Assembly: GCA_963700145.1 (NCBI GenBank)
Contig: OY969474.1
Coordinates: forward strand, 960,001-1,024,000
Reading direction: 5' to 3'
Source of the DNA: an uncultured Acidobacteriota bacterium
Lineage (GTDB): Bacteria; Acidobacteriota; Thermoanaerobaculia; Multivoradales; UBA5704
Length of the DNA stretch: 64,000 nt
Part shown: positions 27,255-56,775 of the stretch, in pieces
How positions within the stretch are numbered: the stretch's first letter is position 1
Layout of the letters: the number at the start of each line of letters is the position of its first letter
Made by a program: the position numbers and the translations under genes
The notes under the pieces: generated by a model
What the model was told of the DNA's origin: nothing
Seen by the model: the letters and a program-made list of their open reading frames with translations, nothing else
Database searches by the model: none

Positions 27255-27325
27255 CCTCACAGCAGCAGCGGCAGTACGAGAGAGGCAGCCACTCCGGGCT
27301 TCGCAGCGGCTGGGCGGCGGTAGGT

Positions 27326-28297: not shown

Positions 28298-30258
28298 GCG
28301 CCGGCCGCCCGCTCCGCCGCCACGCCCCCAAGCTCGTCGCGCTCGGCCTGATAGGAGCGCTCTACGGCTTCGCCCGCGAGCCCGTGCCCTCGCCCGCCGC
28401 GGCGGCGGCGCTCGCCGCGCGCTTCCGCTTCGACGCCGCGGCACTGCCCGAGCCTCCCGGCCGGTCCGCCGCCGGCGTGCGGCGGGTGCACCCGACCCTC
28501 GAGCGGATCGCCGGCTGGATCTCCTCGGTCGGCGCGGCGATCGCCCTCGGGGACCTCGACGGTGACGGACTGCCGAACGACGCCTGTCACGTCGACCCGC
28601 GCTTCGACGCCGTGATCGTCGCCCCGCTACCGGGAACCGGCGGCCGTTTCGACCTCTTTACTCTCGACCCACCCGCGCTCCCCGACCGCAACTGGGCGGC
28701 GGCGGCGATGGGCTGCGTCCTCGCCGACCTCAACGAGGACGGGCTCGCCGATCTCCTCGTCTACTACTGGGGGCGGACGCCGGTGGCGTTCCTGCGCCGG
28801 CAAGGGGCGGGCCTCGCCGCCGCGCGCTTCCGAGCGCTCGAGATCGTGCCGGGACGCGAGCGCTGGTACACCAACGCTGCGACCCGCGCCGACCTCGACG
28901 GCGACGGCCACCCGGACCTCGTCTTCGGCAACTACTTCCCCGACGGCTCCCGCATCCTCGACGCCCGAGCGCCGGGGCGCGAGGCGATGCCGGACAGCAT
29001 GTCGCGCGCCGCCAACGGCGGGCGCAACCGGTTGCTCTTGTGGGCAGGGGGCCGGGGCGGCGCCGAGCCGGCGGTCCGCTTCGCCGACGCCTCCACCGCG
29101 CTCGAGCCGGCGCTCGCCACCGCCTGGACGCTGGCGGTGGGCGCCGCCGACCTCGACCACGACCTCCTTGCCGAGCTGTACTTCGCCAACGACTTCGGCC
29201 CCGACCAACTGCTCCACAACCGCAGCCGCCCGGGCCGGCCGGCGTTCGCGCCCCTCGCCGGCGAGCGCGGCTGGACCACCCCCGCCTCGAAGGTCCTGGG
29301 CGGCGACTCGTTCAAGGGCATGGGCGTCGACTTCGCCGACCTCTCGGGCGACGGCCTGCTCGACATCTACGTCAGCAACATCGCCCAGGAGTTCGCGCTC
29401 GAGGAGAGCCACTTCGCCTACGTCTCGACCGGTGCCACGGCGCGGATGCGCGACGGCGTCGCTCCCTACGTCGACCGCAGCGAGCCGCTCGGCTTGGCGC
29501 GCAGCGGTTGGGCGTGGGAGTCGCGACTCGCCGACTTCGACAACGACGGCGTGCTCGAGGCGGTCCAGGCCACCGGCTTCATCCGCGGGGCGGTCAACCG
29601 CTGGCCGGAGCTGCACGAGCTGGCGATGGGCAACGACCGGCTGCTCCACCGGCCCGGGGCGTGGCCCCGTCTCCGCGCCGGCGACGCGCTGTCGGGCGAC
29701 CTCGCGAACGCCTTCTTCGTGCGGGCAGCGGACGGGCGCTACGTCGACGTCGCGCTGCGCGTCGGCCTCGGGCGGAGGCAGGTGTCGCGCGGCGTCGCCA
29801 CCGCCGACGTCGACGCCGACGGCGCGCTCGACCTGGCGGTGGCGAACCAGTGGGAGCCTTCCTATCTCTATAGGAACCGCGGGCGCGGAGCCGCGGCGGC
29901 GCCGTACCTCGGGCTGCGCCTGCTCCTGCCTCTCCGCCCCGCGGCGGGCGCCCACCTGCCCGGCCTAGCGGCGCCGTCGCTGCCGGCGCGCGCCGCCGTC
30001 GGCGCCGCCGCGGAGGTGCGCCTGCCGGACGGCCGCCTTCTCGCTGCCGAGGTCGACGGCGGCAACGGCCACTCGGGCGACCGCAGCCCGGAGCTGCACT
30101 TCGGGCTCGGCGGGCTGCCCCCGGGCGGCCGCGTCGCCGTGGCGCTGCGCTGGCGCGATCCGGTGGGACGCTCACACGGCGCGCGCCTCACCTTGACCCC
30201 CGGCTGGCACACGCTGCTGCTGGGCTGGACCCCTCGCGAGAAGAGGGCTGAGGCATGA
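28294..30258 (+). CDS. Enediyne biosynthesis protein E4 (UnbV; FG-GAP/ASPIC)
   Basis: WISSVGAAIALGDLDGDGLPND, SMSRAANGG, SKVLGGDSFKGMG, NRWPELHELAMGND, VDGGNGHSG...LHFGLG; N-terminal hydrophobic anchor. Confidence 0.93.
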   Translation: MSAGRPLRRHAPKLVALGLIGALYGFAREPVPSPAAAAALAARFRFDAAALPEPPGRSAAGVRRVHPTLERIAGWISSVGAAIALGDLDGDGLPNDACHVDPRFDAVIVAPLPGTGGRFDLFTLDPPALPDRNWAAAAMGCVLADLNEDGLADLLVYYWGRTPVAFLRRQGAGLAAARFRALEIVPGRERWYTNAATRADLDGDGHPDLVFGNYFPDGSRILDARAPGREAMPDSMSRAANGGRNRLLLWAGGRGGAEPAVRFADASTALEPALATAWTLAVGAADLDHDLLAELYFANDFGPDQLLHNRSRPGRPAFAPLAGERGWTTPASKVLGGDSFKGMGVDFADLSGDGLLDIYVSNIAQEFALEESHFAYVSTGATARMRDGVAPYVDRSEPLGLARSGWAWESRLADFDNDGVLEAVQATGFIRGAVNRWPELHELAMGNDRLLHRPGAWPRLRAGDALSGDLANAFFVRAADGRYVDVALRVGLGRRQVSRGVATADVDADGALDLAVANQWEPSYLYRNRGRGAAAAPYLGLRLLLPLRPAAGAHLPGLAAPSLPARAAVGAAAEVRLPDGRLLAAEVDGGNGHSGDRSPELHFGLGGLPPGGRVAVALRWRDPVGRSHGARLTLTPGWHTLLLGWTPREKRAEA

Positions 30259-31187
30259 CGAGCCCAGGGGATCTGCGCCTGCCGGCGCTGCGCCGCTTCG
30301 CCGTCGCCATCACGCTGCTCAACCTGGCCGGCCACGCCGTGCTCGGGTTCGAGCAGTCGTGGGCGCAGCCTCTGGTGGCGCTCGTCGCCGCCTACGTGAC
30401 CGAGCTGCTCCTCGCCGCCGTCGAGGCGCGCGCCGAGGGGCGGCCGGTGCCCTGGACCCGCGGCGGGCCACGCGGGCTCGTCGACGCGCTGCTCGCTCCG
30501 CACATCACCGGGCTCGCCGTCGCCATGCTCACCTACGCCAACGAGCGGCTGGCGCCGGTCGCCTTCGCCAGCGCCGCCGCCATCGCCTCGAAGTTCGTGC
30601 TGCGCGTGCCGATGGGAGCACGGCGCCGCCACTTCCTGAACCCGTCGAACGCCGGCATCACGCTCACCCTGCTCCTCTTCCCGTGGGTTGGCATCGCCCA
30701 ACCGTACATGTTCACCGAGGACCTGGGGCCGGTCGGCGACGTGCTGCTGCCGGCGCTCATCGTCTGCACCGGCAGCTTCCTCAACACCCGCTTCACCCGC
30801 CGCATCGTGCTGGCCGGTGCCTGGCTCGGCGGCTTCGCCGCGCAGGCGCTGCTGCGCGCCTTCCTCTTCGGCACGCCGCCTGCGGCGGGACTGGTGCCGA
30901 TGACCGGCGTCGCCTTCCTCCTCTTCACCTTCTACATGGTCACCGACCCCGCGACGACGCCCGACGACCGGCGCGGGCAGGTGCTCTTCGGTCTCTCGGT
31001 CGCCGCCACCTACGGCATGCTGATGCGCCTGCACGTCGTCTTCGGCCTGTTCTTCGCCCTCTCGATCGTCAGCCTGCTGCGCGGCACGCTGTTCGCCGCC
31101 CGCGCGCTGGCGCTGCGGCGCGCCGCGGCGGCGCGGCGGGTCGAGGGCGTGCTGCCACTGCCCGTGACCGTCGTGCCGCCGCGATGA
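30255..31187 (+). CDS. Enediyne biosynthesis protein E5 (UnbU), membrane protein
   Basis: ALRRFAVAIT-LN-GH-LGFEQS, HITGLAV, RHFLNPSN, FTFYMVTDPATTP. Confidence 0.92.
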   Translation: MTSPGDLRLPALRRFAVAITLLNLAGHAVLGFEQSWAQPLVALVAAYVTELLLAAVEARAEGRPVPWTRGGPRGLVDALLAPHITGLAVAMLTYANERLAPVAFASAAAIASKFVLRVPMGARRRHFLNPSNAGITLTLLLFPWVGIAQPYMFTEDLGPVGDVLLPALIVCTGSFLNTRFTRRIVLAGAWLGGFAAQALLRAFLFGTPPAAGLVPMTGVAFLLFTFYMVTDPATTPDDRRGQVLFGLSVAATYGMLMRLHVVFGLFFALSIVSLLRGTLFAARALALRRAAAARRVEGVLPLPVTVVPPR

Positions 31188-34100
31188 AGGGCGCCGTCGC
31201 CATTGTCGGCATGGCCTGCCGCTACCCGGACGCGCGGAGCCCGCGCGAGCTATGGGAGAACGCGCTCGCCGGCCGGCGGGCGTTCCGCCGCATCCCGGCC
31301 GAGCGGCTGCGGCTGGCCGACTACTACGCCGCCGACCGCGCCGCCGCCGACAGCATCTACTCGACCGAGGCGGCGGTGCTCGAGGGCTACGAGTTCGACC
31401 GCGTCCGCTTCCGCGTCGCAGGCCCTTCCTACCGCGCCGCGGACCTCGTCCACTGGCTGGCTCTCGACGTCGCGGCCGCCGCGCTCGCCGACGCCGGCTT
31501 TGCCGACGGCGCGGGGCTGCCGCGTGAGGCGACCGGCGTCCTCCTCGGCAACACCCTGACCGGCGAGCAGTCGCGCGCCAACCTCTTGCGGCTGCGCTGG
31601 CCCTACGTCCGGCGGGTGACGGCGGCGGCCCTCGCCGAGGCCGGGGTGGAGGAGCGCGGCGCGTTGCTCGCGCGGCTCGAGGCGCTCTACAAGGAACCGT
31701 TCCCGGAAGAGACCGAGGAGAGCTTGGCCGGCGGGCTCTCCAACACCATCGCCGGACGCATCTGCAACCACTTCGACCTCGGCGGCGGCGGCTACACCGT
31801 GGACGGCGCCTGCGCCTCGTCGCTGCTGGCGGTGGCGCAGGCCTGCGGCGCGCTCGCCGCCGGCGACCTCGAGGTGGCGCTGGCCGGCGGCGTCGACCTC
31901 TCGCTCGACCCCTTCGAGCTGGTCGGCTTCGCCCGCACCGGGGCGCTGGCGGCAGGCGCGATGCGGGTCTACGACGCCGGCTCGCGGGGCTTCATTCCCG
32001 GCGAGGGCTGCGGCGTCGTGGTGCTAATGCGGCTCGACGCGGCGCGCGCCGCCGGGCGCCGGGTGCGCGCGGTGATCCGCGGCTGGGGCGTGTCCTCGGA
32101 CGGCCGCGGCGGGCTGACGCGGCCGGAGGTGGAAGGGCAGATGCGGGCGCTCGCCCGCGCCTACGCGTGCGCCGGGCTGGCGATCGGCGAGGTCGCCTAC
32201 TTCGAAGGGCACGGCACCGGCACCGCGGTGGGCGACGCAGCCGAGCTCGAGGCGCTGTCGCGGGCGCGCCGGCAGGACCGCGGCGACGAATGCGATGACC
32301 GGGGAGGGCGGGCGCTCCCCGCCATCGGCTCGATCAAGGCGGTCATAGGACACACCAAGGCCGCGGCCGGGGTCGCCGGTCTGATCAAGGCGACGCTGGC
32401 GCTCGAGGCGCAAGTGCTGCCGCCGACGATCGGCTGCGACGACCCGCACCCGCTCCTCGCCGGACCGGACGCCGCTCTGCGCGCGCCGGCGGCGGCGGAG
32501 CCGTGGCCGGCGGCGGCACCGCTCCTCGCCGGCGTGAGCGCCATGGGGTTCGGCGGCATCAACGCGCACCTCGTGCTCGAGGGCGTGGCGGGCGAGCGGC
32601 GGCGGCGGCTCGCCCCGGCCGAGCAGCTCCTCGCGGCATCGCCGCAGGACGCCGAGCTACTGCTGCTCGCGGCCGACGACGCGGCGGCGTTGGCACAGGA
32701 GGTCGCGCGACTGGCGCGGCTCGCGCCCCGTCTTTCTCGGGCCGAGCTGGGGGACCTCACCGCGCGCCTCGCGGCCGACCTGCGGCCGGGGCGGCTGCGG
32801 GCGGCGGTCGTGGCCGGCTCGCCCGCGGGTCTCGCGCGGCGCCTCGAGAAGCTCGCCGACTGGCTCGCCCTCCTGCCGCCGTCTGACGCCGATGACGTGG
32901 GCTGCTGGCGGCAGCTCGACGCCGCGGACGGTGTCTTCCTGGGGCTCGGCGGACAGGCGCCACGGCTCGGCTTCCTCTTCCCCGGCCAAGGAGCGCCCGT
33001 TCCCGCCGCCGGCGGCGCACTGGCGCGGCGCTTCGCCGCCGCGGCCGAGGTCTACGCCGGGCTTGACCTGCCGTCCGTAGAGGACCGCATCGCCACCGCC
33101 GTCGCCCAGCCGGCCATCGCCGCCGCCACGCTCGCCGCGCTGAGGGTGCTCGAGCTGCTGCGGATCGAGGCCGCGGTCGCGGTCGGGCACAGCCTGGGGG
33201 AGCTTGCGGCGCTAACCTGGGCGGGAGCACTCGACGCCGCCGCGCTGGTGCGGGTGGCGGCGGCGCGCGGCCGGGCGATGGCGGAGGTCGACGCCCCGCC
33301 GGGAGCGATGGCCAGCCTGGCGGCGGCGCCGGAGGCGGTCGCGAGCTTCCTCGCCGGCGGCGAACTGGTGGTGGCCGCGTACAACACGCCGGCCGACACC
33401 GTGGTCTCCGGTCCGGCGGCCGCCGTCGAGCGCCTGATCGAGCGCGCCCGTGCCGCCGGTCTGCCGGCCTCGCGCCTCGCCGTCTCGCACGCCTTCCACG
33501 CGCCGGCCATGGCGGCGGCGGCACCGCGCCTGGCGGCGGCGCTGGCGGCGGAGGCTCTGCGGCCGCCGGTCCGCCGGGTCGTCTCGACGGTCACCGGCCG
33601 GCCGCTGCCGCCAGAGGTGGACCTCGTCCGCCTGCTCCTCGACCAGCTCACGCATCCGGTGCGCTTCGTCGCGGCGCTGGCCGCCGCCGGACCGGTGGAC
33701 CTCTGGATCGAGGTCGGCCCCGGCCGGGTGACGAGCGGCCTCGCCGCCTCCTGCGGCGCGGCGCCGGCGGTGCCGCTCGACGCCGGCGGGCCGTCGCTCC
33801 GCGGGCCGCTGCAGGCCGCGGGCGCCGCCTTCGCTCTCGGCGCGCCGGTTGCGGCGGCGGCGCTGTTCGCCGGGCGCTTCACACGGCCGTTCGATCCCGA
33901 GCGCCCGCTGCGCTTCCTCGCCAACCCCTGCGAGCGGGCGCCGGTAGCGCCTAACGATCTCGGCGCCGAGCCGAGCGTGAGGCAAAGAGAAGAAAGGAGT
34001 CCGATGGGGGCAGAACAAGCGCACGCTGCCGCCGACCCGCTGGCGGTCGTGCGCGGGCTCGTCGCCGAGCGCGCCGAGCTGCCGCTCGCGGCCGTGGACG

Positions 34101-37057
34101 AGACGAGCCGCCTGCTCGGCGATCTCCACCTGAGCTCGATCGCCGTCGGCCAGCTCGTCGTCGAGGCGGCGCGGCGGCTCGGGCGCGCGGCGCCGGCCGC
34201 GATCATCGAGTACGCCGGCGCCACCGTCGGCGAGGTGGCGCGTGCGCTCGCCGAGCAGCCGCAGCGCGACGAGGCGGCGGCCGAGCCCGAGCGCTGGCCG
34301 GCCGGAGTGGACGCCTGGCTGCGCGCCTTCATCCTCGCTTGGGTGGAGAGGCCGGCGGCGCCGCCGCGCCCGCTCCCCGTCGGCGGCGCCTGCGGCTGGC
34401 GCGTGATGGCGCCGGCCGGGCACCCGCTGGCCGAGCCGCTGCGCCGTGAGCTGGCGCGGGCCACGGGCGGGGGCGTCGCCGTGTGCCTGCCGGCGGAGCC
34501 CGGCGCCGCCACTCCCGGTCTCCTCCTCGCCGCCGCGCACGCGGTCATGGCGCTACCGCGGCCGGCCTGCTTCGTGGCGGTGCAGGCCGCGGGATGGGGA
34601 GGTGGGTTCGCGCGCACTCTCCATTTGGAACGGCCGGATCTCGCCACCGCCGTCGTCGAGGTTCCCTTGGTGGCGCCGGACGGCCATCCGGCCAGCATCG
34701 CGGCTTGGGTGGCGCGCGAGGCCGCGGCGGCGCTCGCCGCCGGCGGCTATCACGAGGCGCGCTACGACGACGCCGGGCGGCGCAGCGAGCCGGTCCTCCG
34801 CCTGCTCGCCGAGCCGCCGCTCGACGTCGAGCCCGCCGCCCCCGCCGCGCTCCCTCTCGGTCCAGACGACGTCCTCCTGGTCACCGGCGGCGGCAAGGGG
34901 ATCGGCGCCGAGTGCGCGCTGGCGCTGGCTCGCGCGAGCGGCGCGCGGCTGGCCCTCCTCGGCCGCTCGCGGCCCGAAGAGGACGGCGCGCTGGCCGCGA
35001 ACCTCGAGCGCCTGCGCGCCGCCGGGGTGGCCTTCGCCTACCTGAACGCCGACGTCACCGATCCCGACGCGGTCGCGGCGGCGGTGCGCGCAGCGGAGCG
35101 CCGGCTCGGGCCGGTCACCGCCGTGCTCCACGCCGCGGGAAGCAACTCCCCGTGCCTCGTGGCGGCGCTCGACGAGGCGGCGTTCCGCCGCACCCTGGGG
35201 CCCAAGGTCGACGGCCTCGCGCACGTGCTCTGGGCGCTCGATCCGGCGCGCCTCCGCCTGCTGGTCGCCTTCGGCTCGATCATCGGCCGCACCGGTCTGC
35301 CCGGCGAGGCCGACTACGGCGTCGCCAACGAGTGGCTGGCGCGCCGCGTCGAGGCGTTCGCGGCGGCGTTCCCGGCCTGCCGCTGCCTCACCGTCGAGTG
35401 GTCGGTCTGGTCGGGGGTCGGCATGGGCGAGCGACTCGGCCGTGTGGAGGCGCTGCTGCGCGAGGGGATCACGCCGATCCCGCCCGACGGCGGAGTCGCG
35501 GCGCTCCTCGCGCTGCTGCGCCGGCCGCCGCCGGCGACCTCGGTCGTGGTCTGCGGCCGCTTCGGCGACCCGCCGACGCTGCGCCTTGAGCGCCGCGAGC
35601 TGCCGCTGCTCCGCTTTCTCGAGGTGCCGCGCGTCCACGTGCCGGGTGTGGAGCTGGTGGTGGAGAGCGATCTCTCGGCCGATTCCGACCCCTACTTCGC
35701 CGACCACCAGCTCGCGGGCGAGCGCCTGCTGCCGGCGGTGATCGGGCTCGAGGCGATGGCGCAGGCCGCGATGGCGGTCGCCGGTGCGACGGCGCTGCCG
35801 GTCTTCGAGGAGGTCGCGTTCCTGCGCCCGGTCGGGCTCCCGGCCGCCGGCCGGACGCGGCTGCGCATCGCGGCGCTCGGACGCGAGCCGGGGCGGGTGG
35901 AGGTGGTCCTCCGCTGCGCCGCGACCGGCTTCGCGGCCGACCACTTCCGCGCCACCTGCAGCTTCACGGCGGGGCGCCCCGAGGCGGCGACGCCGGCGGG
36001 CGCGGCGCCCGCCGACGAGCCGCCGGCGCGCCTCGCGCTCGACCCCCAGCGCGAGCTCTACGGCGACCTGCTGTTCCACGGCGCCCGCTTCCAGCGTCTG
36101 AGCGGTTACCGGCGGCTGCGCGCCACCGAGTGCCTCGCCGAGATCTCGCCTGACGGTCATACCGAGTGGTTCGGGAGCTACCTGCCCGCGACTCTGGTGT
36201 TGGGCGACCCCGGCGCCCGCGACGCCGCGCTGCACGGCGTGCAGGCCTGCGTGCCACACGCGACTCTCCTGCCGATCGGCGTCGAGCGGATCGAGACCGC
36301 GCCGCTCGCCACCGATCAGCCGTGCCGCGTCACTGCCCGCGAGCGGCGGCGCGACGGGAACACCTTCGTCTTCGACCTCGAGATCGCCGACGCCGGCGGC
36401 GCCCGCGAGCGCTGGCTGGGGCTCCGCCTGCGCGCCGTCGCCGCGCTGTCGCCGCGCGCCGCCTGGCCGCTGCCGCTCCTCGCTCCCTACGTCGAGCGCC
36501 GGCTCGAGGAGCTGCTGCCGGCGGGCCGGCTGGCGGTCGTCCTGGAGCGCGCCGCCCGGGGCGAGCGCCGCGCCGCCGCCGGCCGGGCGCTGGCCGCCGC
36601 GCTCGGGACCGCCGCCGTCGTTGCCCGCCGTCCCGACGGCCGGCCGGAGGGGCCCGGCGGCCGCGCCGTCTCGGTGGCGCACACGGTGGGCCTGGTGCTG
36701 GCGGTGACCGGCGCCGGTCCGCTCGGCTGCGACCTCGAGCCGGTCGCGGACCGCCCGCCGGAAGCCTGGCGCAGCCTCCTCGGGAGCGAGCGGTCGGCGC
36801 TCGCGGCGCTGCTCGGCCGCGAGCGCGGCGAGGACGCGGCGGCCGCGGCGACGCGCGTCTGGACCGCGGCCGAGTGCCTGAAGAAGGCCGGCGCCCCGGC
36901 CGCAGCGCCGCTGGTGCTGGCCGGCGGCACGGCCGACGGCTGGGTGCTGCTGCGCTCGGGACGGCTGCAGGTGGCGACGCTGGTGACCGGCATCGGCGCG
37001 GAGAGCGGGCGTCTGGCGCTGGCGGTGGCGGCGGAGGCGGTCGATGCCCTTCTTTGA
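31184..37057 (+). CDS. pksE: Enediyne iterative type I polyketide synthase PKSE (KS-AT-ACP-KR-DH-PPTase)
   Basis: KS: TVDGACASS, EGHGTGT, IGHTKAAAG. AT: GHSLG, HAFH. ACP: LGDLHLSSIAVGQL. KR: TGGGKGIG. DH: DHQLAGERLLPAV. PPTase: GCDLEPV...RVWTAAECLKK. The ATGA start overlaps the E5 stop; 1957 aa. Confidence 0.97.
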   Translation: MKGAVAIVGMACRYPDARSPRELWENALAGRRAFRRIPAERLRLADYYAADRAAADSIYSTEAAVLEGYEFDRVRFRVAGPSYRAADLVHWLALDVAAAALADAGFADGAGLPREATGVLLGNTLTGEQSRANLLRLRWPYVRRVTAAALAEAGVEERGALLARLEALYKEPFPEETEESLAGGLSNTIAGRICNHFDLGGGGYTVDGACASSLLAVAQACGALAAGDLEVALAGGVDLSLDPFELVGFARTGALAAGAMRVYDAGSRGFIPGEGCGVVVLMRLDAARAAGRRVRAVIRGWGVSSDGRGGLTRPEVEGQMRALARAYACAGLAIGEVAYFEGHGTGTAVGDAAELEALSRARRQDRGDECDDRGGRALPAIGSIKAVIGHTKAAAGVAGLIKATLALEAQVLPPTIGCDDPHPLLAGPDAALRAPAAAEPWPAAAPLLAGVSAMGFGGINAHLVLEGVAGERRRRLAPAEQLLAASPQDAELLLLAADDAAALAQEVARLARLAPRLSRAELGDLTARLAADLRPGRLRAAVVAGSPAGLARRLEKLADWLALLPPSDADDVGCWRQLDAADGVFLGLGGQAPRLGFLFPGQGAPVPAAGGALARRFAAAAEVYAGLDLPSVEDRIATAVAQPAIAAATLAALRVLELLRIEAAVAVGHSLGELAALTWAGALDAAALVRVAAARGRAMAEVDAPPGAMASLAAAPEAVASFLAGGELVVAAYNTPADTVVSGPAAAVERLIERARAAGLPASRLAVSHAFHAPAMAAAAPRLAAALAAEALRPPVRRVVSTVTGRPLPPEVDLVRLLLDQLTHPVRFVAALAAAGPVDLWIEVGPGRVTSGLAASCGAAPAVPLDAGGPSLRGPLQAAGAAFALGAPVAAAALFAGRFTRPFDPERPLRFLANPCERAPVAPNDLGAEPSVRQREERSPMGAEQAHAAADPLAVVRGLVAERAELPLAAVDETSRLLGDLHLSSIAVGQLVVEAARRLGRAAPAAIIEYAGATVGEVARALAEQPQRDEAAAEPERWPAGVDAWLRAFILAWVERPAAPPRPLPVGGACGWRVMAPAGHPLAEPLRRELARATGGGVAVCLPAEPGAATPGLLLAAAHAVMALPRPACFVAVQAAGWGGGFARTLHLERPDLATAVVEVPLVAPDGHPASIAAWVAREAAAALAAGGYHEARYDDAGRRSEPVLRLLAEPPLDVEPAAPAALPLGPDDVLLVTGGGKGIGAECALALARASGARLALLGRSRPEEDGALAANLERLRAAGVAFAYLNADVTDPDAVAAAVRAAERRLGPVTAVLHAAGSNSPCLVAALDEAAFRRTLGPKVDGLAHVLWALDPARLRLLVAFGSIIGRTGLPGEADYGVANEWLARRVEAFAAAFPACRCLTVEWSVWSGVGMGERLGRVEALLREGITPIPPDGGVAALLALLRRPPPATSVVVCGRFGDPPTLRLERRELPLLRFLEVPRVHVPGVELVVESDLSADSDPYFADHQLAGERLLPAVIGLEAMAQAAMAVAGATALPVFEEVAFLRPVGLPAAGRTRLRIAALGREPGRVEVVLRCAATGFAADHFRATCSFTAGRPEAATPAGAAPADEPPARLALDPQRELYGDLLFHGARFQRLSGYRRLRATECLAEISPDGHTEWFGSYLPATLVLGDPGARDAALHGVQACVPHATLLPIGVERIETAPLATDQPCRVTARERRRDGNTFVFDLEIADAGGARERWLGLRLRAVAALSPRAAWPLPLLAPYVERRLEELLPAGRLAVVLERAARGERRAAAGRALAAALGTAAVVARRPDGRPEGPGGRAVSVAHTVGLVLAVTGAGPLGCDLEPVADRPPEAWRSLLGSERSALAALLGRERGEDAAAAATRVWTAAECLKKAGAPAAAPLVLAGGTADGWVLLRSGRLQVATLVTGIGAESGRLALAVAAEAVDALL

Positions 37058-37469
37058 GCAGCGCCACGTGGTCGCCTTCGAGGACACGAACCTGGTGGGC
37101 AACGTCTATTACGTGAACTACCTGAGCTGGCAGGGACGGTGCCGCGAGATGTTCATCCGCGCCTACTGCCCGGAGCTGCTCGCCGAGCTGGCCGGCGGGC
37201 TGGCCCTGGTCACCACCCGCTGCTCGTGCGATTTCCTGCGCGAGCTCGCGGCGTTCGACGAGGTGGCGGTGCGCATGCGCCTGGGCGAGCTCGGGCAGAG
37301 CCGCGTGACCATGCTCTTCGACTATTGGCGGCTGGCCGCCGAGGGCGAGGAGCTGGTGGCGCGAGGCGAGCAGCAGGTGGCCTTCATGCGGCGCGAGGCG
37401 GACCGGCTGGTGCCGGCGCCGGTCGCGCCGCGCTTCCGGGAGGCCGTCCAGGCCTTCGTCACGCAGTGA
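37044..37469 (+). CDS. Enediyne hotdog thioesterase E10 (TEBC)
   Basis: FEDTNLVGNVYYVNYLSWQGRCREMF, the SgcE10/CalE7-type signature, directly after PKSE. Confidence 0.95.
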   Translation: MPFFEQRHVVAFEDTNLVGNVYYVNYLSWQGRCREMFIRAYCPELLAELAGGLALVTTRCSCDFLRELAAFDEVAVRMRLGELGQSRVTMLFDYWRLAAEGEELVARGEQQVAFMRREADRLVPAPVAPRFREAVQAFVTQ

Positions 37470-51007: not shown

Positions 51008-52465
51008 TCAGTCGCCGGCGGCGACGGTGGCGTCGAAGGCACCGGTGAGCACCTGACCGCCGCTCTTGGCCTGGACCCAGATGCGGTAGCGGCCGGGCTC
51101 CGGAAAGGCGTAGGGGAAGGACAGGTCGGACGGGAGGGGGCGCGGGGAGACGGCGGCAGGCGCTGCGGTGTGGCCGGCATGCGCCGAGGCGGACGCTCGC
51201 TCGCGGCGGGCGAAGAGCTGGAGCGAGGCCATGGAGACGGTACCGGAGGGGTGGAGATGGACGAACACCTCGCCGTCGTCGCGGGCGATGACGGCGTGTC
51301 CGGGCATGCCCATGTACGGCTCGAGGGGGAGGGGCCGGCCCGCCGCGTCCTGGAGCGCGAAGCCGAGGGCCGTCTCGCGACCGGCGGTGAGCCGCTCGTG
51401 GCCCCGTAACCAGAGCATCTCGGCGCCGCAGTCGAGCTGAGCGGTCCGGGCCGCGTGCCAGGAGTCGTCCGGATCGGAGGCCAGGCCGGGCTCGCCTCCG
51501 GCCGCGGGATCGGGCGGCGGCGGCAGGTCCACGCTGCCGACGAGGGTGTGCGCGAAGCCGGTCTCCTCGGTGACGTCGGCGAAAAGACGATAGCGGCCGG
51601 CGGTGAGGGGAGGCAGGACGGCCTCGAAGCTGCGGTCGTCGACCGGCGTCGGGTGGAGATGGGCGAAGCCGCCGCGGTCTCCCTCGCCGAGCAGGAAGAG
51701 GTGAACGAGCTTGCCGTGGTCGGGGACGAGCGGGGCGGTGCGCGCCCAGCGCTCGTCGGCGACCGCGAGCGTGAGCAGGCGCTGCGGGCCTTCGACGGCG
51801 GCGCGCGCGTCGAGCCGGAAGGTTTGGTAGAGGCCGGCGCGGTGCGCGGCGTCGGCGCGGTCCCACCAGCCCTTGCCGAGCGCGAGGACGAGGGTGAGGA
51901 CGGCGGCGGCCAGGACGCCGGCGCGGCGGCCGCGCCGGCGTTCCCGCGCCTCCGGCCCGGCTCCCGGAGCGAGGGCGCTCTCGCGCGCCGCGGCGGCGGT
52001 GACCGCGACCGCGCCGGCGAAGAGCAGCGCCGCGAGCGCCGCCAGCAGTGCGCCGCGCCAGCGGGGCATCGGGCTGCGCTCCATGACGACCGGCGCGACC
52101 GGCACCGCCGCCGTGCCGTGGCCGCGGTCGCCGTCCACCTCGACCTGGAGGTAGTACGAGCTCACGGTCATCAGCCAGAGGTCCGCCCGGTAGAGACCCA
52201 CCGCGCCGCGCACGGGCGCGGCTGGCTCGGCGCCGGGCGCGCCAGCGAGGCCGGCGTCCCAGCGCACCGGACGCACCGCCACGCGCCGCGCCCGCCCGGC
52301 CTCGACGCGCACCGCCACCTCCGCCACCCCCGGCACCACGGCCGGCGGCCGCACGGTGACACGCACCGGGTAGGCTCCCGCCGCGCCGCGGAAGAAGACG
52401 TCCGGGCTGCCCACGTGCCCCATCGTCGCCAGCGCGAGCACGGCGAGCAGGAGGAGCCGGCTCAT
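51008..52465 (-). CDS. Conserved membrane-anchored His-rich hypothetical protein
   Basis: Signal peptide, HVGSPDVFF, two TM, PDHGKLVHLFL, FAHLHP, LEPYMGMPGH, FVHLHP, GRYRIWVQ. Confidence 0.75.
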   Translation of the reverse strand: MSRLLLLAVLALATMGHVGSPDVFFRGAAGAYPVRVTVRPPAVVPGVAEVAVRVEAGRARRVAVRPVRWDAGLAGAPGAEPAAPVRGAVGLYRADLWLMTVSSYYLQVEVDGDRGHGTAAVPVAPVVMERSPMPRWRGALLAALAALLFAGAVAVTAAAARESALAPGAGPEARERRRGRRAGVLAAAVLTLVLALGKGWWDRADAAHRAGLYQTFRLDARAAVEGPQRLLTLAVADERWARTAPLVPDHGKLVHLFLLGEGDRGGFAHLHPTPVDDRSFEAVLPPLTAGRYRLFADVTEETGFAHTLVGSVDLPPPPDPAAGGEPGLASDPDDSWHAARTAQLDCGAEMLWLRGHERLTAGRETALGFALQDAAGRPLPLEPYMGMPGHAVIARDDGEVFVHLHPSGTVSMASLQLFARRERASASAHAGHTAAPAAVSPRPLPSDLSFPYAFPEPGRYRIWVQAKSGGQVLTGAFDATVAAGD

Positions 52466-53682
52466 CGCTGCACCCGCCGCAGCCAGCGTCCGAGGACGAG
52501 CCCGAGCCCCGCCGACGCGGTCGCCGCGAGGAAGGTCCAGGCGATCGCCTCAGGCGCCAGCGCGTCGGTCTCCCAGAACTGGTAGCGCCACGCCCCGAGC
52601 CGCGGGTGGACGCCTTCCACGGTGGCGGTGACGCCGAAGTACCACTCGTCCCCGGCGAAGACAGGGTTGCGGGCCCGCGGCGAGAGGAGGAAGGCGGCGA
52701 GAGGCCACTGGACCGCCGCGAAGGCCACCACGAACAGCGCGCCCAGGAGCGGTGCCGCCAGCAGCCCCTGCAGGCGCATCCGGAGACCGCGGCGGAGGGC
52801 GTCTCCGGCCGCCCGCCGCCGCGTCACGAGATCGACGGCAACCGCGGGCGCCAGCAGCAGGAGCGGAAAGATCCCGGGCCACATGTGGTCGACGCGGTTG
52901 AAGACCGGCGCCAGCCCCGGCTCGGCGGGGAAGAGCGGCAGGATCCAGAGCGTCGCCAGCGAGAGCGCGGTATAGACGGCGGCGACCGTCGTCGCCGCCC
53001 ACCGCCGGCCCGTCCGCGCCACCGCCACCAGGAGCCACGGGTAGGCGAGGGCCGAGGCGCGGTAGAAGGCGGCGCCGTGCTGGCGGTTGGGGTAGTTGGA
53101 CTCGAGCAGGAGGGTCGCCAGGAGGAGCGCGGTGACGCCGGCGACGGCGAGCAGGCCTCCCTCGAGCCACCGGCGCGCGCCCCCGGCCGCGCGGTTGGCG
53201 AGCGCCGCGGCCTGGAGGAGCGTGCCGAGGTGCACGACGACCATCCCCGTGGCGAGCACGCTGTGCGCCGGCGTGACGATGCCGACGTCGAGGCCGTAGG
53301 TGCCGTGCCACCAGGCGTCGAAAGGGGCCGCCGTCAGCATGGCGGCGGCGCCCCAGAGCGACACCCAGGCGCCGATCGGCGCGCGGAAGCCCCAGACCCG
53401 CACGGCGGCGGCGCGCTCGTGCGCCGCGCCGGCGAAGGTGGTGCGCGCCACGAGCCACGCCGCCGCGAGACCGGCGAGGAGGCTCCCCAGGTAGATCGTG
53501 ACGTGGGCCGGCGTCCAGAAGCTGTCGCGGCCGACGCTGGCGTGCCAAGAGATGTCCCAGAGGAGGCCGAGAGTGATGGCGCCGCAGCCGGCGGTCGCGG
53601 CCGCCAGCGCCGCCCGCCGTACGTCGACCCGCGCGTCGATCTCGTGGACTGCGACGAGCCTCTCGCCGGCCAGACTCGTCAC
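52462..53682 (-). CDS. Polytopic membrane protein
   Basis: WDISWHASVGRDSFWTPAH and FDAWWHGTYGLD...TPAH repeated His motifs; many TM segments. Confidence 0.78.
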   Translation of the reverse strand: MTSLAGERLVAVHEIDARVDVRRAALAAATAGCGAITLGLLWDISWHASVGRDSFWTPAHVTIYLGSLLAGLAAAWLVARTTFAGAAHERAAAVRVWGFRAPIGAWVSLWGAAAMLTAAPFDAWWHGTYGLDVGIVTPAHSVLATGMVVVHLGTLLQAAALANRAAGGARRWLEGGLLAVAGVTALLLATLLLESNYPNRQHGAAFYRASALAYPWLLVAVARTGRRWAATTVAAVYTALSLATLWILPLFPAEPGLAPVFNRVDHMWPGIFPLLLLAPAVAVDLVTRRRAAGDALRRGLRMRLQGLLAAPLLGALFVVAFAAVQWPLAAFLLSPRARNPVFAGDEWYFGVTATVEGVHPRLGAWRYQFWETDALAPEAIAWTFLAATASAGLGLVLGRWLRRVQR

Positions 53683-56612
53683 GGCACAGGCTCGAGCAGC
53701 CGCCGCACCTCGCGCTCGAGGCCGTCGGCGGAGATCCCGCCGCTCACCACGCGCGCGATCGCGCCCGAGGCGTCGAGCACCACCGCCGCCGGCAGCGGCA
53801 CGGCGCCGTCGCCGAACGCGGCCTCGAGGAGGGGAGCCATCGCTTGCATGTCGGAGAGCCCCATGCGGTACTGGGGCCGGGTGCGTGCGATGAAGTCACG
53901 CGCGGCATTGGCATCGGGCTCGAAGGAGATTCCGACGACCTGCGCGTCGTCACCGAGCCGGCGCTGCAGCGCATCGAGCTCCGGCACCTCGGCCGCGCAA
54001 GGCAAGCACCAGGAAGCCCACAGGCTCACCACCGCCGGCCTGCCAGCGGAGAGCGTGAACGGCGTTCCTTCCGTGGTCCACGCACGCCAGACGGGACGTT
54101 GCGCGGCGGGCGTGCGGGCGGAGGCAGGCTCCGCCCCCAACCCTTCGGCGAACGCACGCAGCGCCGTCAGAGTCACCCGCCCTTCTCCCTCGACGATCCG
54201 TACCACGTTCCCCGCCGGCAGGTCGCGGAAGGTCTCGACGCTCCCTCCCGGCCAGCGCACCGTCAGCTCGTCCGCCCGCTGCGCGCCGCCCAGGCCGAAG
54301 TGCAGCGTCGCCTCCGACTGCGCCTGGAAGCCGCTCCCCGCCGAGCGCACCCGCACCTGCCGCAGGCCGCCGGCGGTGAGCCGCGCCACCGCCCCGACCG
54401 CGTCGCGGTTGCCGCGCGTCCCGACCAGCTCGACGCGGAGGGCGTTGCCGCGCCAGGCGGCGTCGTTGTGGAGGTAGGCGAGCTTCTGCCGCGCCACGCT
54501 CCGCACCACGAGGTCGAGGCCGCCGTCGCCGTCGAGGTCGCCGACGGCGACGCCGCGCCCCTCGAGGTCGAGGTCGATCCCGAGCGGGTAGCCGGCCTCG
54601 ACGAAGCGCCCGCCGCCGCCGTTGACGAAGAGGCAGTTGCGCTCGCGGGCGTTGAAGCTGAACCCCTTGAGCGCGCCGTCGCTCGCCAGGAGATCGAGGT
54701 CATCGGGCCCCAGGCGGGTCATCAGACGCGACACCGCCTCCTTCTTCTCCAGGGTCCTGCCGCTCGCTTCGGGCGTCAGCGCCAGGACCTGGCGCCAGTA
54801 GAGCGGTCAGGCATCGGCATCGCTGGTCCCCGCCCAGAAGCCGTTGGCGACGTGGAGGTCGAGCCGGCCATCGTTGTCGTAGTCGAGGAAGTTGCTCCCC
54901 CAGGCCCAGCCCGCGAGGTGCACGGCGGCGGTCGCGCCGCGCTCCTCGAAGCGGGTCTCGCCGGCGGCGTCGGGGCCGGCGTTGCGGTAGAGCGAGTTGC
55001 CGCGCGCGCTCCACAGCAGCTTCTGGCGCAGCACCGGATCGAGGTCGGGGACGAGCGGCACGAACTGGTTGCCGGTCTTCGAGTACATGTTGGCGACGTA
55101 GAGGTCGAGCCGGCCGTCGTTGTCGTAGTCGCCCCAGTCGGCGCCCATGCCGTTGGCGGGGTCGGCGACGCCGGCGCGCGCCGCCACCTCCTCGAAGCGC
55201 ACCTCGCCCGCGGCGTCGCGGCCGCGGTTGCGGAAGAGCTGGTCGTCGCCGAAGTCGTTGGCGACGAAGAGGTCGATCCGGCCGTCGTCGTCGTAGTCGG
55301 CCCAGGCCGAGGCGTAGGCCCAGCCCGCGCCGCGCACGCCGGTGCTCTCGCCGACCTCGGCGAAGCGGAAGCCGCCCAGGTTGCGGTAGAGGCGATTGCC
55401 GAAGCCGTCGCGCGCCTCGACGAAGTGATGGTAGGGGTGGAGCTTGGTGTCCTGGTAGTAGGTGACGAAGAGGTCAAGCAGGCCGTCGCCGTCGTAGTCG
55501 GCGGCGGAGGCGCCGCTCGCCGGCCCGACCGGCCCGAGCTCGCCGGGCAGGCGCGTGAAGCGCGTCGCGCCGCCGCGCGGGCCGTCGTTGCGGTAGAGGA
55601 CGTGCCCGCGCCGCGCGTGCTCGCCCTGGATCAACGTGTAAGCGGCATTGACGACGAAGAGGTCGAGGTCGCCGTCGTTGTCGAGGTCCACCCAGAGCGC
55701 CGCCTGGCCGTTGCCGGGATCGCCGACGCCGGCCGCCGCCGTCACGTCCACGAAGCCGCCGCGGCCGTCGTTGCGCAGCAGCGCGTTGGGGCCGGCGCGC
55801 ACGACGTAGAGGTCGGGCCGGCCGTCGCGGTCGTAGTCGCCGATGGCGACGCCGCCGTAGAGGATCTGGCCGTACGCGAAGTCGGTCGGGTCGTAGCCCT
55901 CGTCGCGCCAGTCGGCGGGGAGGCCGGCGCGCGCTGTCCGGTCGCTGAAGGCGGGGCCGGCGCTCTCGAAGCGCTCGCGCTCGCCCCAGACGAGGCGCGT
56001 CAGGCGCCAAGCGCCCTCGCCGTCCTCGGCCAGCTCGGCGGCGACGTCGCCCTTCTCGCCGACGCGGCTGCCGTCGGCGGTGACGCCGCCCAGCCAGAGG
56101 TGGAGGTCGACGGCGGCGCGCCGCGGGCCGTCGCCGCGCGGCGTCGCGAGCACCCGGTAGGGCTTGAAGAAGCAGCGCTCGACGCGCTGCCACGAGCCGG
56201 TCAGGAGCGCGAGGTCCGCCGCGAAGGCCGCCGGCCCGCCGAAGCAGCCGGCGTCGGCCGGCCGGAGGAGCGATCCGTGCGCGTGCGCGCCGGCGACGAC
56301 CGGCGTCTCGGCGCGCGGGAAGAGCCGCTGCACCCGCGCCTCGGGCGCGAGGTACGGGCGGACGGCGTCGACGTCGAACGCCGTCAGCACGCGGCAGACG
56401 CCGCCCATCGTCACTTCCTTGACCGCCGCCGCGATCGCCTCGACCTCGACCAGGTCGCGCTCGGGCTCGGCGATCGCGAGGGACGGCGGCGCGGCGGAGC
56501 AGGTATCCGCCGGCGGCGGCGACGGCGGGCTCGCGGCCGCGGCGGCGGACGCCGCGCCCGCGGCCGCGAGACAGAGCGGGGCGAGCGGCCGGAGCGCCGC
56601 GCGAAGCGTCAC
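53679..56612 (-). CDS. Secreted FG-GAP/ASPIC-UnbV protein fused to a TlpA thioredoxin domain, with in-frame UGA at 54807-54809 (candidate selenocysteine)
   Basis: ORFs 54807-56612 and 53679-54734 share one frame, separated only by TGA and 24 sense codons (GTSDADA-UGA-PLYWRQVL). Multiple DYDxDG repeats, SGFQAQS...LHFGLG, C-terminal WASWCLPC. Confidence 0.75.
54779..54795 (-). promoter_or_regulatory. Candidate bacterial SECIS hairpin
   Basis: GCGCCAG-GUC-CUGGCGC begins after an 11-nt spacer 3' of the UGA; the apical CAGGUC resembles E. coli fdhF SECIS (GCAGGUCUGC). Confidence 0.65.
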
Positions 56613-56654: not shown

Positions 56655-56766
56655 ACGGTAGCCAAGCGCTCCGGCGCCAACTTCTCCCGGATTGCGCGGC
56701 TGCCGCCGCGCTGCCGCCCATCGCGCAATCTCGGATAAGCGCTCCTCCGGGCCGCCGCGATAGCAA
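56655..56766. promoter_or_regulatory. Divergent promoter with two back-to-back cluster boxes
   Basis: Minus: CGCAATCCGGGAGAAG (56681-56696)-N20-TACCGT. Plus: CGCAATCTCGGATAAG (56724-56739)-N21-TAGCAA. Confidence 0.72.
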
Positions 56767-56775
56767 AGCGTGCGG

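Follow-up and report, generated by a model that had tools for sequence, protein, structure and literature searches.

Bacterial selenoproteins made by way of SelB-type SECIS elements carry an in-frame UGA codon and, directly downstream within the coding region, a stem-loop. A 2026 review catalogue lists 119 prokaryotic selenoprotein families and subfamilies (its Table 1), and most characterized prokaryotic selenoproteins have a thioredoxin-like fold (PMC13188914). No FG-GAP, ASPIC, UnbV or CRTAC1 entry is found among the 119 families of that table (PMC13188914). The TlpA/ResA-type selenoproteins (UGC-containing TlpA family and ResA-like WAxxUGC) join extracytoplasmic thioredoxin-fold redox chemistry with selenium, and in them Sec takes the place of the first Cys in the thioredoxin motif.

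Proteins of the CRTAC1/ASPIC/UnbV type are composed of an FG-GAP propeller followed by a UnbV_ASPIC domain. Ordinary members are about 550-600 amino acids long, have neither Sec nor Cys at the column considered here, and carry the public names 'CRTAC1 family protein' or 'enediyne biosynthesis protein E4'. We know of no established biochemical activity for the family.

The gene described here lies in a 64,000-nucleotide stretch of DNA from an uncultured Acidobacteriota bacterium (the window) and encodes the same propeller and UnbV_ASPIC arrangement. Unlike CRTAC1 and its relatives, however, its product adds Sec, an N-terminal domain, a helical propeller insert and a fused TlpA-like domain. We assign a probability of roughly 0.88 to the reading that this is a genuine selenoprotein, that UGA-602 is decoded via the downstream hairpin, that Sec and a CxxC motif would act as a relay, and that the gene stands outside the neighbouring enediyne-type cassette. 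The conserved UGA, covariation in the SECIS-type element, the Sec machinery, the existence of Cys homologues and the protein architecture are shown by the sequences; export, the relay and its re-reduction are proposals.

Gene architecture and the in-frame UGA

The target frame runs from a GTG at 56612 to a stop at 53679-53681, and its sole internal stop is the TGA at 54807-54809 (GFWAGTSDADA-U-PLYWRQVL). The first-pass annotation had described a 977-codon frame with a single in-frame TGA and a perfect 7-bp hairpin 11 nt beyond it, and both elements are present exactly as described. The features of the gene are as follows.

53679..56612, minus strand: complete gene of 977 codons and a stop codon, containing a single in-frame UGA; putatively exported FG-GAP/UnbV_ASPIC propeller fused to a TlpA-like thioredoxin
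56529..56612, minus strand: probable signal peptide, residues 1-28, suggested by a hydrophobic, Ala-rich N-terminus (pLDDT <50 for residues 1-35)
55962..56453, minus strand: N-terminal alpha+beta domain, residues 54-217, with confident predicted secondary structure (pLDDT ~85-94)
54453..55850, minus strand: FG-GAP beta-propeller, residues 255-720 (six stretches of Pfam FG-GAP_3; predicted structure)
54807..54809, minus strand: UGA very probably read as selenocysteine, residue 602; the column is invariant, as is D600
54207..54401, minus strand: UnbV_ASPIC domain, residues 738-802 (Pfam PF07593, 65.1 bits against a cut-off of 23.4)
53748..54077, minus strand: TlpA/ResA/DsbE-like thioredoxin-fold domain, residues 846-955 (Pfam Redoxin/AhpC-TSA and structure matches)
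53997..54008, minus strand: CxxC motif C869-L-P-C872 (WCLPC, within WASWCLPC), from the sequence

Membership of the UnbV/ASPIC family and a C-terminal thioredoxin-like domain with CxxC, both proposed from the letters alone, are borne out by the FG-GAP and PF07593 matches, by the Redoxin/AhpC-TSA match over residues 846-955 with its WCLPC (C869/C872), and by a CRTAC1-like predicted fold. Among PDB structures, murine CRTAC1 matches best (9etn_A, E 1.6e-28, TM 0.72 over the target), and the C-terminal domain matches the structures of ResA, DsbF, TlpA and CcmG with E values of 3e-8 to 1e-6. No Pfam family matches the N-terminal domain (residues 54-217). The protein is probably exported, and many relatives appear to be lipid-anchored: several orthologue translations open with a lipoprotein-type ...G-C or ...S-C box when read by the familiar lipobox rule. 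In many relatives, CcmH/CycH-like TPR repeats come after the thioredoxin-like domain.

Like TlpA, ResA, DsbE (CcmG) and DsbF, the C-terminal domain has a WxxWCxxC motif and the same fold, but it forms part of a propeller fusion instead of being anchored alone. It is not assignable to any named TlpA/ResA-type equivalog of NCBIfam, since all scores fall far below the cut-offs (TlpA, 43 bits versus 230). The NCBIfam selenoprotein models likewise match the thioredoxin domain only, all below cut-off; NF041054, the ResA-like WAxxUGC model, gives a weak partial match of 34.5 bits against a cut-off of 300. In contrast to the TlpA/ResA-type selenoproteins, the target keeps both thioredoxin Cys residues, and its putative Sec is found in a different domain, 267 residues further upstream. 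Specifically, the predicted model places Sec602 at the N-terminal end of a helix (601-611) in a helical insert of the propeller (593-654), a region that is poorly modelled near Sec602 (pLDDT 41-66 for residues 593-654). Its location in a beta-propeller insert, and not in the UxxC/CxxU motif of a thioredoxin fold, sets the target apart from other bacterial selenoproteins.

After the TGA, the earliest in-frame start is a GTG 24 codons on (ORF 53679-54734), and the near-invariant WRQV lies only 4-7 codons 3' of the TGA. The region 3' of the TGA must therefore come from read-through. An assembly error does not account for the TGA: a 599-amino-acid public protein from another, near-identical assembly (P0005) terminates exactly before it, and a contig from soil-metagenome run X2, which may be the source sample, spans 54685-54866 of the target with zero differences. 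These two records also answer the concern raised in the first-pass annotation that the TGA might be a sequencing error.

Conservation of the UGA and of the downstream hairpin

Among the best 85 rows from 300 genomes of the order, each match contains one TGA (E 5.6e-234 to 1.4e-40). The TGA column is identical in all checkable loci of the order, which amount to 35 distinct DNA sites when the window's own is counted (38 HSPs, plus two from group B, a set with different residues here, whose tblastn placement was off by one column). Scanning named genomes for a DNA pattern yielded at least 120 stretches; among the matches listed, 76 of 80 loci encode a homologue with TGA at this column, and the titles of the records name Verrucomicrobiota, Planctomycetota, Acidobacteriota and Myxococcota. 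Metagenome loci supply further cases of TGA at the same column (7/80). Identity to the target upstream and downstream of the UGA is 71 and 67% in G288, the closest orthologue, 67 and 60% in G050, and approximately 44 and 37% in others. No variation is seen at column 602 or at D600, and W606-V609 are conserved to 90% or more, giving the family motif D-x-U-[SP]-x-[FY]-W-R-Q-V.

This distribution bears on the idea that a nonsense mutation or a miscalled base interrupts a decaying paralogue. A single internal stop does have the look of a fresh pseudogene, and the genome is rich in FG-GAP/UnbV paralogues from which one might decay. A stop in the same column at 35 sites of the order, at 76 of the 80 loci listed from other phyla and at seven metagenome loci, an intact and conserved frame 3' of the TGA, and the identical TGA in a second assembly and a metagenome contig refute this idea in practice.

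The genome of the target encodes the complete Sec machinery, as the first-pass annotation had anticipated by naming selA, selB, selC and selD as the genes to seek. The tRNA-Sec scores 70.3 bits, exceeding the Rfam cut-off, and has the anticodon tca (ARAGORN); SelA scores 354.7 bits, the SelB wing domain 69.8 bits, and SelD, which itself has an in-frame TGA and so would contain Sec, 339.5 bits. SelA is found in 275 of the 300 genomes of the order and in all five tested genomes of other phyla with the TGA form. No SelA match was obtained in the 84% complete genome of G288.

A second element of the gene lies immediately downstream of the UGA.

54779..54795, minus strand: SECIS-type apical hairpin GCGCCAG-GUC-CUGGCGC, separated from the UGA by an 11-nt spacer (54796-54806)

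The published bacterial SECIS model, with which we compared this hairpin, has a stem of 4-16 bp, a loop of 3-9 nt with G in the first two loop positions, a UGA-to-loop distance of 16-37 nt and an MFE of -7.5 kcal/mol or lower (PMC13188914). The target element falls within the model in all four respects, with a stem of 6-7 bp, a GGUCN or GUC loop, a loop that begins 17-18 nt after the UGA, and a folding energy of -11.3 kcal/mol when folded alone. Relatives form 6 bp with a GGUCN loop. Across the family, in keeping with SelB-type SECIS elements, the upper stem is 6-7 bp (4 bp in group B) with an MFE of -7.5 kcal/mol or lower, and the loop is 3-5 nt, starts with GG or GU and lies 17-20 nt after the UGA. 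Every one of the 23 sites of the order folds at -8.7 kcal/mol or below, and 71 of the 77 from other phyla reach -7.5 or below. By chance, a perfect hairpin of at least 6 bp starting 9-14 nt downstream follows 342 of 16,829 sampled genome TGA triplets (2.0%), and only 18 of these triplets (0.1%) when a GGTC apex is added.

Non-Sec forms also keep WRQV, so sequence conservation in the hairpin is partly a protein constraint, and support for RNA structure comes solely from the covarying and synonymous positions. These positions do argue for a helix. In 23 distinct sequences of the order it is paired in 99.3% of cells, compared with 60% or less for slid versions; pair 18-28 occurs as CG in 11, GC in five, GU in five and AU in two, and the covariation score of 0.313 (0.137 in shuffles) was reached in none of 500 shuffles. 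At 77 further distinct sites the same pair is GU in 32, AU in 27, GC in eight, CG in six, UA in one, UG in one and mispaired in two, and pairing is retained by the unconstrained partners 29-31 at 76, 73 and all 77 of these sites, respectively. Two loci with altered residues, L059 (WRRVAP) and L219 (WRRVAS), retain the hairpin by compensating changes, and group B, which has other residues here (LPYILxAVAH), still forms a hairpin with a GGUC loop at a distance of 16 nt from the UGA. The earlier proposal that the hairpin acts like a SECIS is thus strengthened by its agreement with the model and by its conserved, covarying helix; the suggested comparison of homologues likewise revealed TGA or Cys kept at the column.

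One other decoding route would dispense with selenium: termination at the UGA would mostly yield a 601-residue propeller fragment, with the hairpin aiding occasional insertion by a near-cognate tRNA (for example Trp or Cys) to give two isoforms. The truncated product is what public gene callers predict, and non-Sec homologues tolerate many residues at the column. Nevertheless, we consider this very improbable: the loop sequence and spacing agree with the SelB-type SECIS model, SelA occurs in every tested genome with the TGA form except one incomplete assembly, the fragment would be without the last propeller blade, and a UGA that stays invariant at hundreds of loci in several phyla is better explained by selected Sec than by a leaky stop. 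In sum, the locus has a conserved UGA with conserved flanks, a SECIS-type element, selA, selB, selC and selD in the genome, and Cys homologues, all of which are features of bacterial selenoproteins, and the UGA is very probably read as selenocysteine.

The gene represents a real selenoprotein family, apparently undescribed and widespread in bacteria. It would fill a gap in the catalogue even though the family is common: a single order contributes the 85 best rows among 300 genomes, and named genomes yield no fewer than 120 stretches. Because public gene calls end at the UGA in genes of this family, many genomes carry faulty annotations for the UnbV, thioredoxin and TPR parts at the C-terminus, and the selenoproteomes of Acidobacteriota, Planctomycetota and Verrucomicrobiota would be undercounted.

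Non-Sec relatives and a possible Sec-CxxC relay

Of the 24 non-Sec forms that were examined, two have Cys in the Sec column: P0003, with 62% identity across residues 560-720, and P0202. P0003 is placed inside the target's own clade (support 100/99). Unlike the pattern in other bacterial selenoproteins, most non-Sec relatives have no Cys here but Ser, Gln, Glu, Ala or Asp: the column in 23 full-length non-Sec representatives that share the motif holds S in seven, Q in four, E in three, A in two, D in two, and G, N, M, R and C in one each. Such a non-Cys majority is unusual for a catalytic Sec, although on the tree these non-Sec forms sit within the diversity of Sec forms.

Of 71 Sec forms with the thioredoxin-like domain, 69 retain the CxxC motif (it is degenerate in L131 and L164), versus three of 16 non-Sec forms, counts that are drawn from related sequences; the other 13 non-Sec forms have AxxS, SxxC, CxxS and similar. 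On the tree this pairing amounts to only two independent contrasts on well-supported branches, for which the sign test is underpowered (p 0.5-1). No thioredoxin-like domain was detectable in the group B Sec forms or in the two Cys forms, and in group A no Cys besides the CxxC is conserved.

In GPx/Prx-type cycles, a peroxidatic selenol or thiol is recycled by a thioredoxin-fold partner. We use this cycle as a working analogy only: the target similarly would have Sec at a helix start and a dedicated CxxC domain that tends to co-occur with it, whereas its Sec-bearing domain is unrelated to GPx/Prx in sequence and fold. According to the mechanism we propose, SelB and tRNA-Sec, recruited by the hairpin 11 nt downstream with its GGUC-type apical loop, would decode UGA-602 as selenocysteine. 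Sec602 would then serve as a redox-active residue toward a substrate held by the propeller, would be recycled after turnover by C869/C872 of the fused CxxC through a selenenylsulfide, and the CxxC may in turn be re-reduced by the same membrane reductant system on which periplasmic proteins of the TlpA type depend.

Whether this amounts to the first sighting of a phylum-spanning selenoenzyme family missing from the 119-entry catalogue, an extracytoplasmic CRTAC1/UnbV propeller whose catalytic insert Sec is recycled by its own TlpA-like CxxC, is a more tentative matter, to which we give slightly less than even odds. If true, it would give the function-unknown ASPIC/UnbV/CRTAC1 superfamily, enediyne E4 included, its first catalytic handle, and would be a case of Sec arising, and repeatedly disappearing, outside a thioredoxin-type motif, each loss being followed by decay of the partner CxxC. 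The conserved Sec and dedicated reductase domain point to redox chemistry and define precise residues for mutation.

The enediyne-type cassette in the window

PKSE cassettes are defined by conserved E3-E4-E5-E-E10 genes beside the enediyne PKS. The window does hold a PKSE-like cassette, which includes a SARP-type regulator, an E4-like FG-GAP/UnbV gene (28537-30141) directly before the PKS (KS-AT-KR-DH, 30197-37054), and a YbgC-type thioesterase that ends at 37466. Because the target and E4 (UnbV) belong to the same Pfam family, the first-pass annotation had cast the target as an E4 paralogue that uses Sec and CxxC on the polyketide of this cassette (26-37.5 kb) and takes part in core formation, activation or quenching. 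That role did not survive comparison and is improbable. The target adjoins no PKS: it starts about 16.6 kb past the thioesterase, on the opposite strand, with unrelated genes between, an S9 peptidase among them. No PKS match at E 1e-6 or better was found within about 9 kb in nine orthologous loci (20 kb or shorter), leaving the enediyne link unsupported, and none of the window's neighbours is shared with the same nine loci. Moreover, the Sec form occurs in at least four phyla, and the window's E4-like gene is only a distant paralogue of the target (E 5.5e-12, 35% identity; 25-32% identity to the orthologous loci).

The gene is accordingly not supported as a functional part of the cassette. The assignment of the target as the E4 (UnbV) of the cassette was also considered and rejected, since it is adjacent to a PKS neither here nor in the nine orthologous loci. 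For enediyne mining, this means that a UnbV-family gene close to a PKSE cassette may not belong to it. Many FG-GAP/UnbV paralogues are present in the target genome.

Three further features flank the target.

52462..53682, minus strand: downstream ORF, 406 amino acids, multi-pass membrane protein-like; its GTG overlaps the target stop; shared only with G288
51008..52465, minus strand: next downstream ORF, 485 amino acids, signal-like at its N-terminus and matching no family; shared only with G288
56681..56739, no strand assigned: 18-nt inverted repeat, 83% complementary, arms 23 nt apart, in the divergent promoter region; candidate operator

Four flanking ORFs in all are shared only with G288, a relative of the same family whose 7.4-kb contig is too short for a PKS. 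The first-pass annotation had also placed the target under a cluster box. The half-site of the inverted repeat shows no enrichment; the repeat itself is the one clear inverted repeat upstream of the target and is unique in the window.

An in-frame UGA in a genome with selenocysteine machinery

On comparative sequence data, the UGA at residue 602 of the propeller-thioredoxin protein very probably encodes selenocysteine (Sec602; probability about 0.88-0.9). The gene has the following features.

GTG at 56612 to stop at 53679-53681, minus strand: target gene frame, 977 residues, single internal stop
54807-54809, minus strand: internal TGA, residue 602 of 977
Six stretches, minus strand: FG-GAP_3 (Pfam)
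Residues 738-802, minus strand: UnbV_ASPIC (Pfam)
Residues 846-955, minus strand: Redoxin/AhpC-TSA (Pfam)

The first-pass annotation had proposed a selenoprotein with a SECIS element and a fused thioredoxin, and what it saw in the sequence is borne out. The UGA lies in the target frame within ...GFWAGTSDADA-U-PLYWRQVL..., the perfect hairpin claimed after an 11-nt spacer (GCGCCAG-GUC-CUGGCGC, 54779-54795) begins 11 nt past the TGA, and the Redoxin/AhpC-TSA match carries the CxxC motif C869-L-P-C872. Because there is no start codon between the UGA and WRQV, and the first start is 24 codons downstream, the WRQV residues can arise only by read-through. Among four runs consisting of contigs, X2 spans the TGA, and X1, X3 and X4 do not. 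Folded alone, the hairpin has a free energy of -11.3 kcal/mol. As a background rate for this genome of 73% G+C, perfect hairpins of at least 6 bp begin 9-14 nt past 342 of 16,829 sampled TGA triplets (2.0%), and hairpins that also have a GGTC apex occur past only 18 of the same 16,829 (0.1%).

The Sec machinery is encoded in the same genome (5.46 Mb, single contig), which yielded a tRNA-Sec (70.3 bits, exceeding the Rfam cut-off; anticodon tca by ARAGORN), SelA (354.7 bits), a SelB winged-helix domain (69.8 bits) and SelD:

G000:C1:3788741-3789661 (the window's own genome, locus L011), plus strand: selD, codon 11 of the match an in-frame TGA, SelD 339.5 bits

This selD is a selenoprotein gene itself (...ATTGG-U-AAKVGPG...), and a strong predicted fold follows its TGA. 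The triplet also retains its ordinary stop function in this genome, where FG-GAP/UnbV paralogues end on it. Paralogues scored with one TGA were considered as extra Sec sites and rejected, since those TGAs are terminal stops. Clusters of such non-Sec FG-GAP/UnbV paralogues lie at G000:C1:4949024-4958648 and 4213858-4229360, and the Sec column of ordinary paralogues is either gapped or occupied by Val, Ile or Glu. Because SelA is found in 275 of the 300 genomes of the order (a set that includes one unpublished genome, G148), its co-occurrence with TGA forms is not discriminating there. Among other phyla, SelA is present in 5/5 genomes with TGA forms, as opposed to only 2/14 control genomes.

Conservation of the UGA and covariation of its hairpin

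A six-frame search of the 300 genomes with residues 480-830 as the query gave matches in 186 of them. Each of the top 85 rows (E 5.6e-234 to 1.4e-40) contains one TGA, and one row has an additional TAG. At every order locus examined, the TGA falls at the residue-602 column (38 HSPs and, in addition, two group B HSPs that tblastn set one column off, together representing 35 distinct DNA sites, the window's included). The first-pass annotation proposed looking for TGA or Cys at this column in homologues; TGA is present at these 35 sites, and Cys in P0003, a protein from a large collection. Identity to the window protein before and after the UGA is 71/67% in genome G288, 67/60% in G050 and about 44/37% in the rest. 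An alignment of 23 sequences shows no variation at column 602 (Sec) or at D600, and conservation of 90% or more at W606, R607, Q608 and V609.

Two subfamilies of Sec forms can be distinguished. Group A, to which the target belongs, has the motif D-x-U-[SP]-x-[FY]-W-R-Q-V and the fused thioredoxin domain. Group B has the motif D-D-L-U-L-P-Y-I-L (DDL-U-LPYILxAVAH) in proteins of about 815 aa that have no thioredoxin domain, and is represented by loci L027, L029 (two copies), L032 and L040; in genome G036, both L029 copies reside inside one 5-kb locus.

We also scanned named genomes with a degenerate DNA pattern describing the UGA plus hairpin, which matched at least 120 stretches. Among the scan matches listed, 76 of 80 loci encode a TGA-column homologue; the remaining four comprise records of Clostridia, Endomicrobiales and Stutzerimonas, together with a Planctomycetales locus that has a stop shortly upstream. 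Because the pattern itself demands a TGA, these counts inform on spread and specificity rather than on frequency. Record titles include Verrucomicrobiota (Roseibacillus, Akkermansiaceae and others), Pirellulaceae, Planctomycetaceae, Phycisphaerae, Bryobacterales, Thermoanaerobaculia, Holophagales and Archangium. Seven further TGA forms are found among 80 metagenome loci.

The hairpin itself covaries. In 27 group A sequences from the order (23 distinct), columns 15-20 after the UGA pair with columns 26-31, and the stem is formed in 99.3% of cells, compared with at most 60% when the partner is slid. Pair 18-28 is CG in 11, GC in 5, GU in 5 and AU in 2 sequences, giving a covariation score of 0.313 versus 0.137 for shuffles (0/500 as high). 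An Arg codon has its synonymous third base in column 18; three codons on, the first base of a codon for Ala, Pro or Ser occupies column 28. At 77 more distinct sites from other phyla, the same pair is GU (32), AU (27), GC (8), CG (6), UA (1), UG (1) or mispaired (2). Opposite Ser UCG, the last base of the Arg codon is G (32), A (24) or U (1) and in no case C; opposite Ala GCG, it is C in 6/8 cases. Partners at columns 29-31, which the search pattern leaves free, are paired at 76/77, 73/77 and 77/77 sites. Furthermore, loci L059 and L219 encode altered residues and retain the hairpin via changes on both arms. The group B hairpin (4-bp stem, GGUC loop, 16 nt past the UGA) encodes unrelated residues, and one group B copy has a CG-to-UA exchange in its stem. 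With a covarying stem kept across the order and other phyla, the hairpin behaves as the SECIS-like element originally proposed. Its invariant part is not independent evidence, however, because non-Sec homologues conserve WRQV too.

As given in a 2026 review (PMC13188914), the consensus bacterial SECIS model comprises four constraints, and the target element conforms to all of them. Its stem is 6-7 bp, its loop GGUCN or GUC, and the distance from the UGA to the loop 17-18 nt (20 nt in group B). Minimum free energies are -8.7 kcal/mol or lower at 23/23 order sites and -7.5 kcal/mol or lower at 71/77 sites of other phyla. In columns 28-33 past the UGA (loci L089-L168), the codon following Val-Val is almost always xCG, and the next begins with C or U (Q, R, H, P or S); thus, the 3' arm of the hairpin apparently limits the amino acids permitted there.

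Domain architecture, the CxxC motif and non-Sec homologues

An AlphaFold2 model built from the 23-row alignment (pLDDT 80.2, pTM 0.78) divides the protein as follows.

Residues 1-35: disordered N-terminus
Residues 54-217: alpha+beta domain
Residues 255-720: propeller
Residues 723-817: UnbV
Residues 844-973: thioredoxin fold

Sec602 is predicted to sit at the N-terminal end of a helix (601-611), within a poorly modelled insert (593-654). Murine CRTAC1 ranks first in a Foldseek search with the model (9etn_A, E 1.6e-28), and the C-terminal domain matches structures of ResA, DsbF, TlpA and CcmG. Many orthologues carry CcmH/CycH-like TPR repeats C-terminal of the TlpA-like domain, as in a 1,401-aa form; such orthologues of 1,150-1,400 aa occur at L026, L046 and L085 (Pfam) and at L050, L051 and L058 (judged from the translation). 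Several orthologues have apparent lipoprotein-type boxes at the N-terminus, by the lipobox rule, and these boxes together with the TlpA-type domain suggest that the target protein is extracytoplasmic.

A thioredoxin-domain HMM derived from 20 Sec forms showed the CxxC motif to be kept in 69 of 73 Sec rows; two are degenerate, and two, both group B, have no thioredoxin match covering the motif. The 24 non-Sec rows comprise three with CxxC, 13 with degenerate motifs (AxxS, SxxC, CxxS, GxxC or none) and eight with no motif-covering match. Group A has no conserved Cys besides CxxC. On the basis of these counts and this absence, we propose a relay in which Sec602 would pass oxidation to C869/C872, which would then be re-reduced by a membrane reductant. 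This relay is our best mechanistic guess, at roughly even odds, and stays an inference because the supported contrasts number two, two Sec forms lack CxxC, and no Trx-like domain is detectable in group B or in either of the Cys forms. No separate thioredoxin gene lies beside the group B Sec forms within their 4-5 kb loci. On a FastTree phylogeny of 97 rows, there are two independent Sec-CxxC contrasts on starred branches and six across all branches (p 0.5-1), so that the apparent coupling remains a count rather than demonstrated co-evolution.

A search of 1.84 billion representative proteins gave 1,115 matches below 1e-30. The best 150 of these include 23 full-length x-SFFWRQV proteins in which x is encoded by a sense codon, namely S (7), Q (4), E (3), A (2) or D (2), or, in one protein each, G, C, N, M or R. 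Cys is therefore a minority replacement for Sec, an atypical pattern. The Cys form P0003 (806 aa, from a large protein collection) shares 62% identity across residues 560-720, and a metagenome scan with it as the query returned neither its own contig (best match 38% identity) nor any non-Sec WRQV form. The public N-terminal fragments P0005, P0009 and P0026, all from close relatives, stop exactly ahead of the TGA by sequence comparison, as do P0019, P0023 and P0095 judging from length and coverage, and therefore public gene calls truncate these genes.

In the tree, made from the propeller and UnbV part with the Trx domain left out, non-Sec forms are nested at several points in Sec-form diversity, requiring at least nine changes, and P0003 pairs with the G050 orthologue as its sister within the window's own clade. 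This nesting fits repeated loss of Sec, a direction that we infer, given that the tree is unrooted and quick.

Gene neighbourhood and novelty of the family

Literature searches combining selenoprotein with FG-GAP, ASPIC, CRTAC1 or enediyne returned nothing relevant. The names FG-GAP, ASPIC, UnbV and up to three further family names per paper do not occur in the main texts of the 2026 review (PMC13188914) and of the papers on the GOS selenoproteome and on deep-Sep (PMC2398784; PMC12013277), whose supplementary tables may list the family under another name. The review presents its Table 1, with 119 families or subfamilies, as the most comprehensive inventory, and that table has no entry for an FG-GAP/ASPIC/UnbV-type family. 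In NCBIfam release 20, only the thioredoxin domain is matched, and under every cut-off. Because these literature and catalogue sources, as far as they are accessible, give no match, we treat the family as undescribed.

The first-pass annotation also assigned the protein to an enediyne cluster, for which the nearby genes were considered.

26175-27221, plus strand: SARP-type regulator, first gene of a PKSE-like cassette (26175-37466)
Between the regulator and the E4-like gene, plus strand: ORF of unknown function in the cassette
28537-30141, plus strand: E4-like FG-GAP/UnbV gene of the cassette
30197-37054, plus strand: KS-AT-KR-DH PKS of about 2,000 aa, nearest NCBIfam likeness PfaA-type / type I PKS
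36987-37466, plus strand: YbgC-type thioesterase of the cassette
Within 51008-53682, minus strand: multi-pass membrane ORF, 406 aa, start overlapping the target stop (GTGA)
Within 51008-53682, minus strand: 485-aa ORF following it, with two H-L-H-P motifs, an N-terminal signal and a hydrophobic segment in the middle
56770-57765 and 57593-58870, plus strand: pair of ORFs resembling each other, family unknown, divergent from the target, with apparent signal peptides
58683-63998, plus strand, 2-7 kb from the target: DHOR-type di-haem oxidoreductase; PQQ-like propeller ORF; fusion of carbon-nitrogen hydrolase and MauG/CCP-type di-haem cytochrome c peroxidase

The target gene lies about 16.6 kb beyond the PKSE-like cassette, on the opposite strand. 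Neither the 406-aa nor the 485-aa ORF has a Pfam or NCBIfam family. The four unknown neighbours of the target are shared with G288 only (same family, 64% identity), and within up to 20 kb, nine other orthologous loci have no PKS and none of these four neighbours. Because of this gene context and the nine loci, the enediyne role is not supported, and we regard such a connection as very unlikely. As to the cluster box that the first-pass annotation named without giving its sequence, the divergent promoter region holds an 18-nt inverted repeat (56681-56739; 83% complementary, arms 23 nt apart); its half-sites are not enriched (15 matches versus 27 expected), and the repeat is unique in the window.
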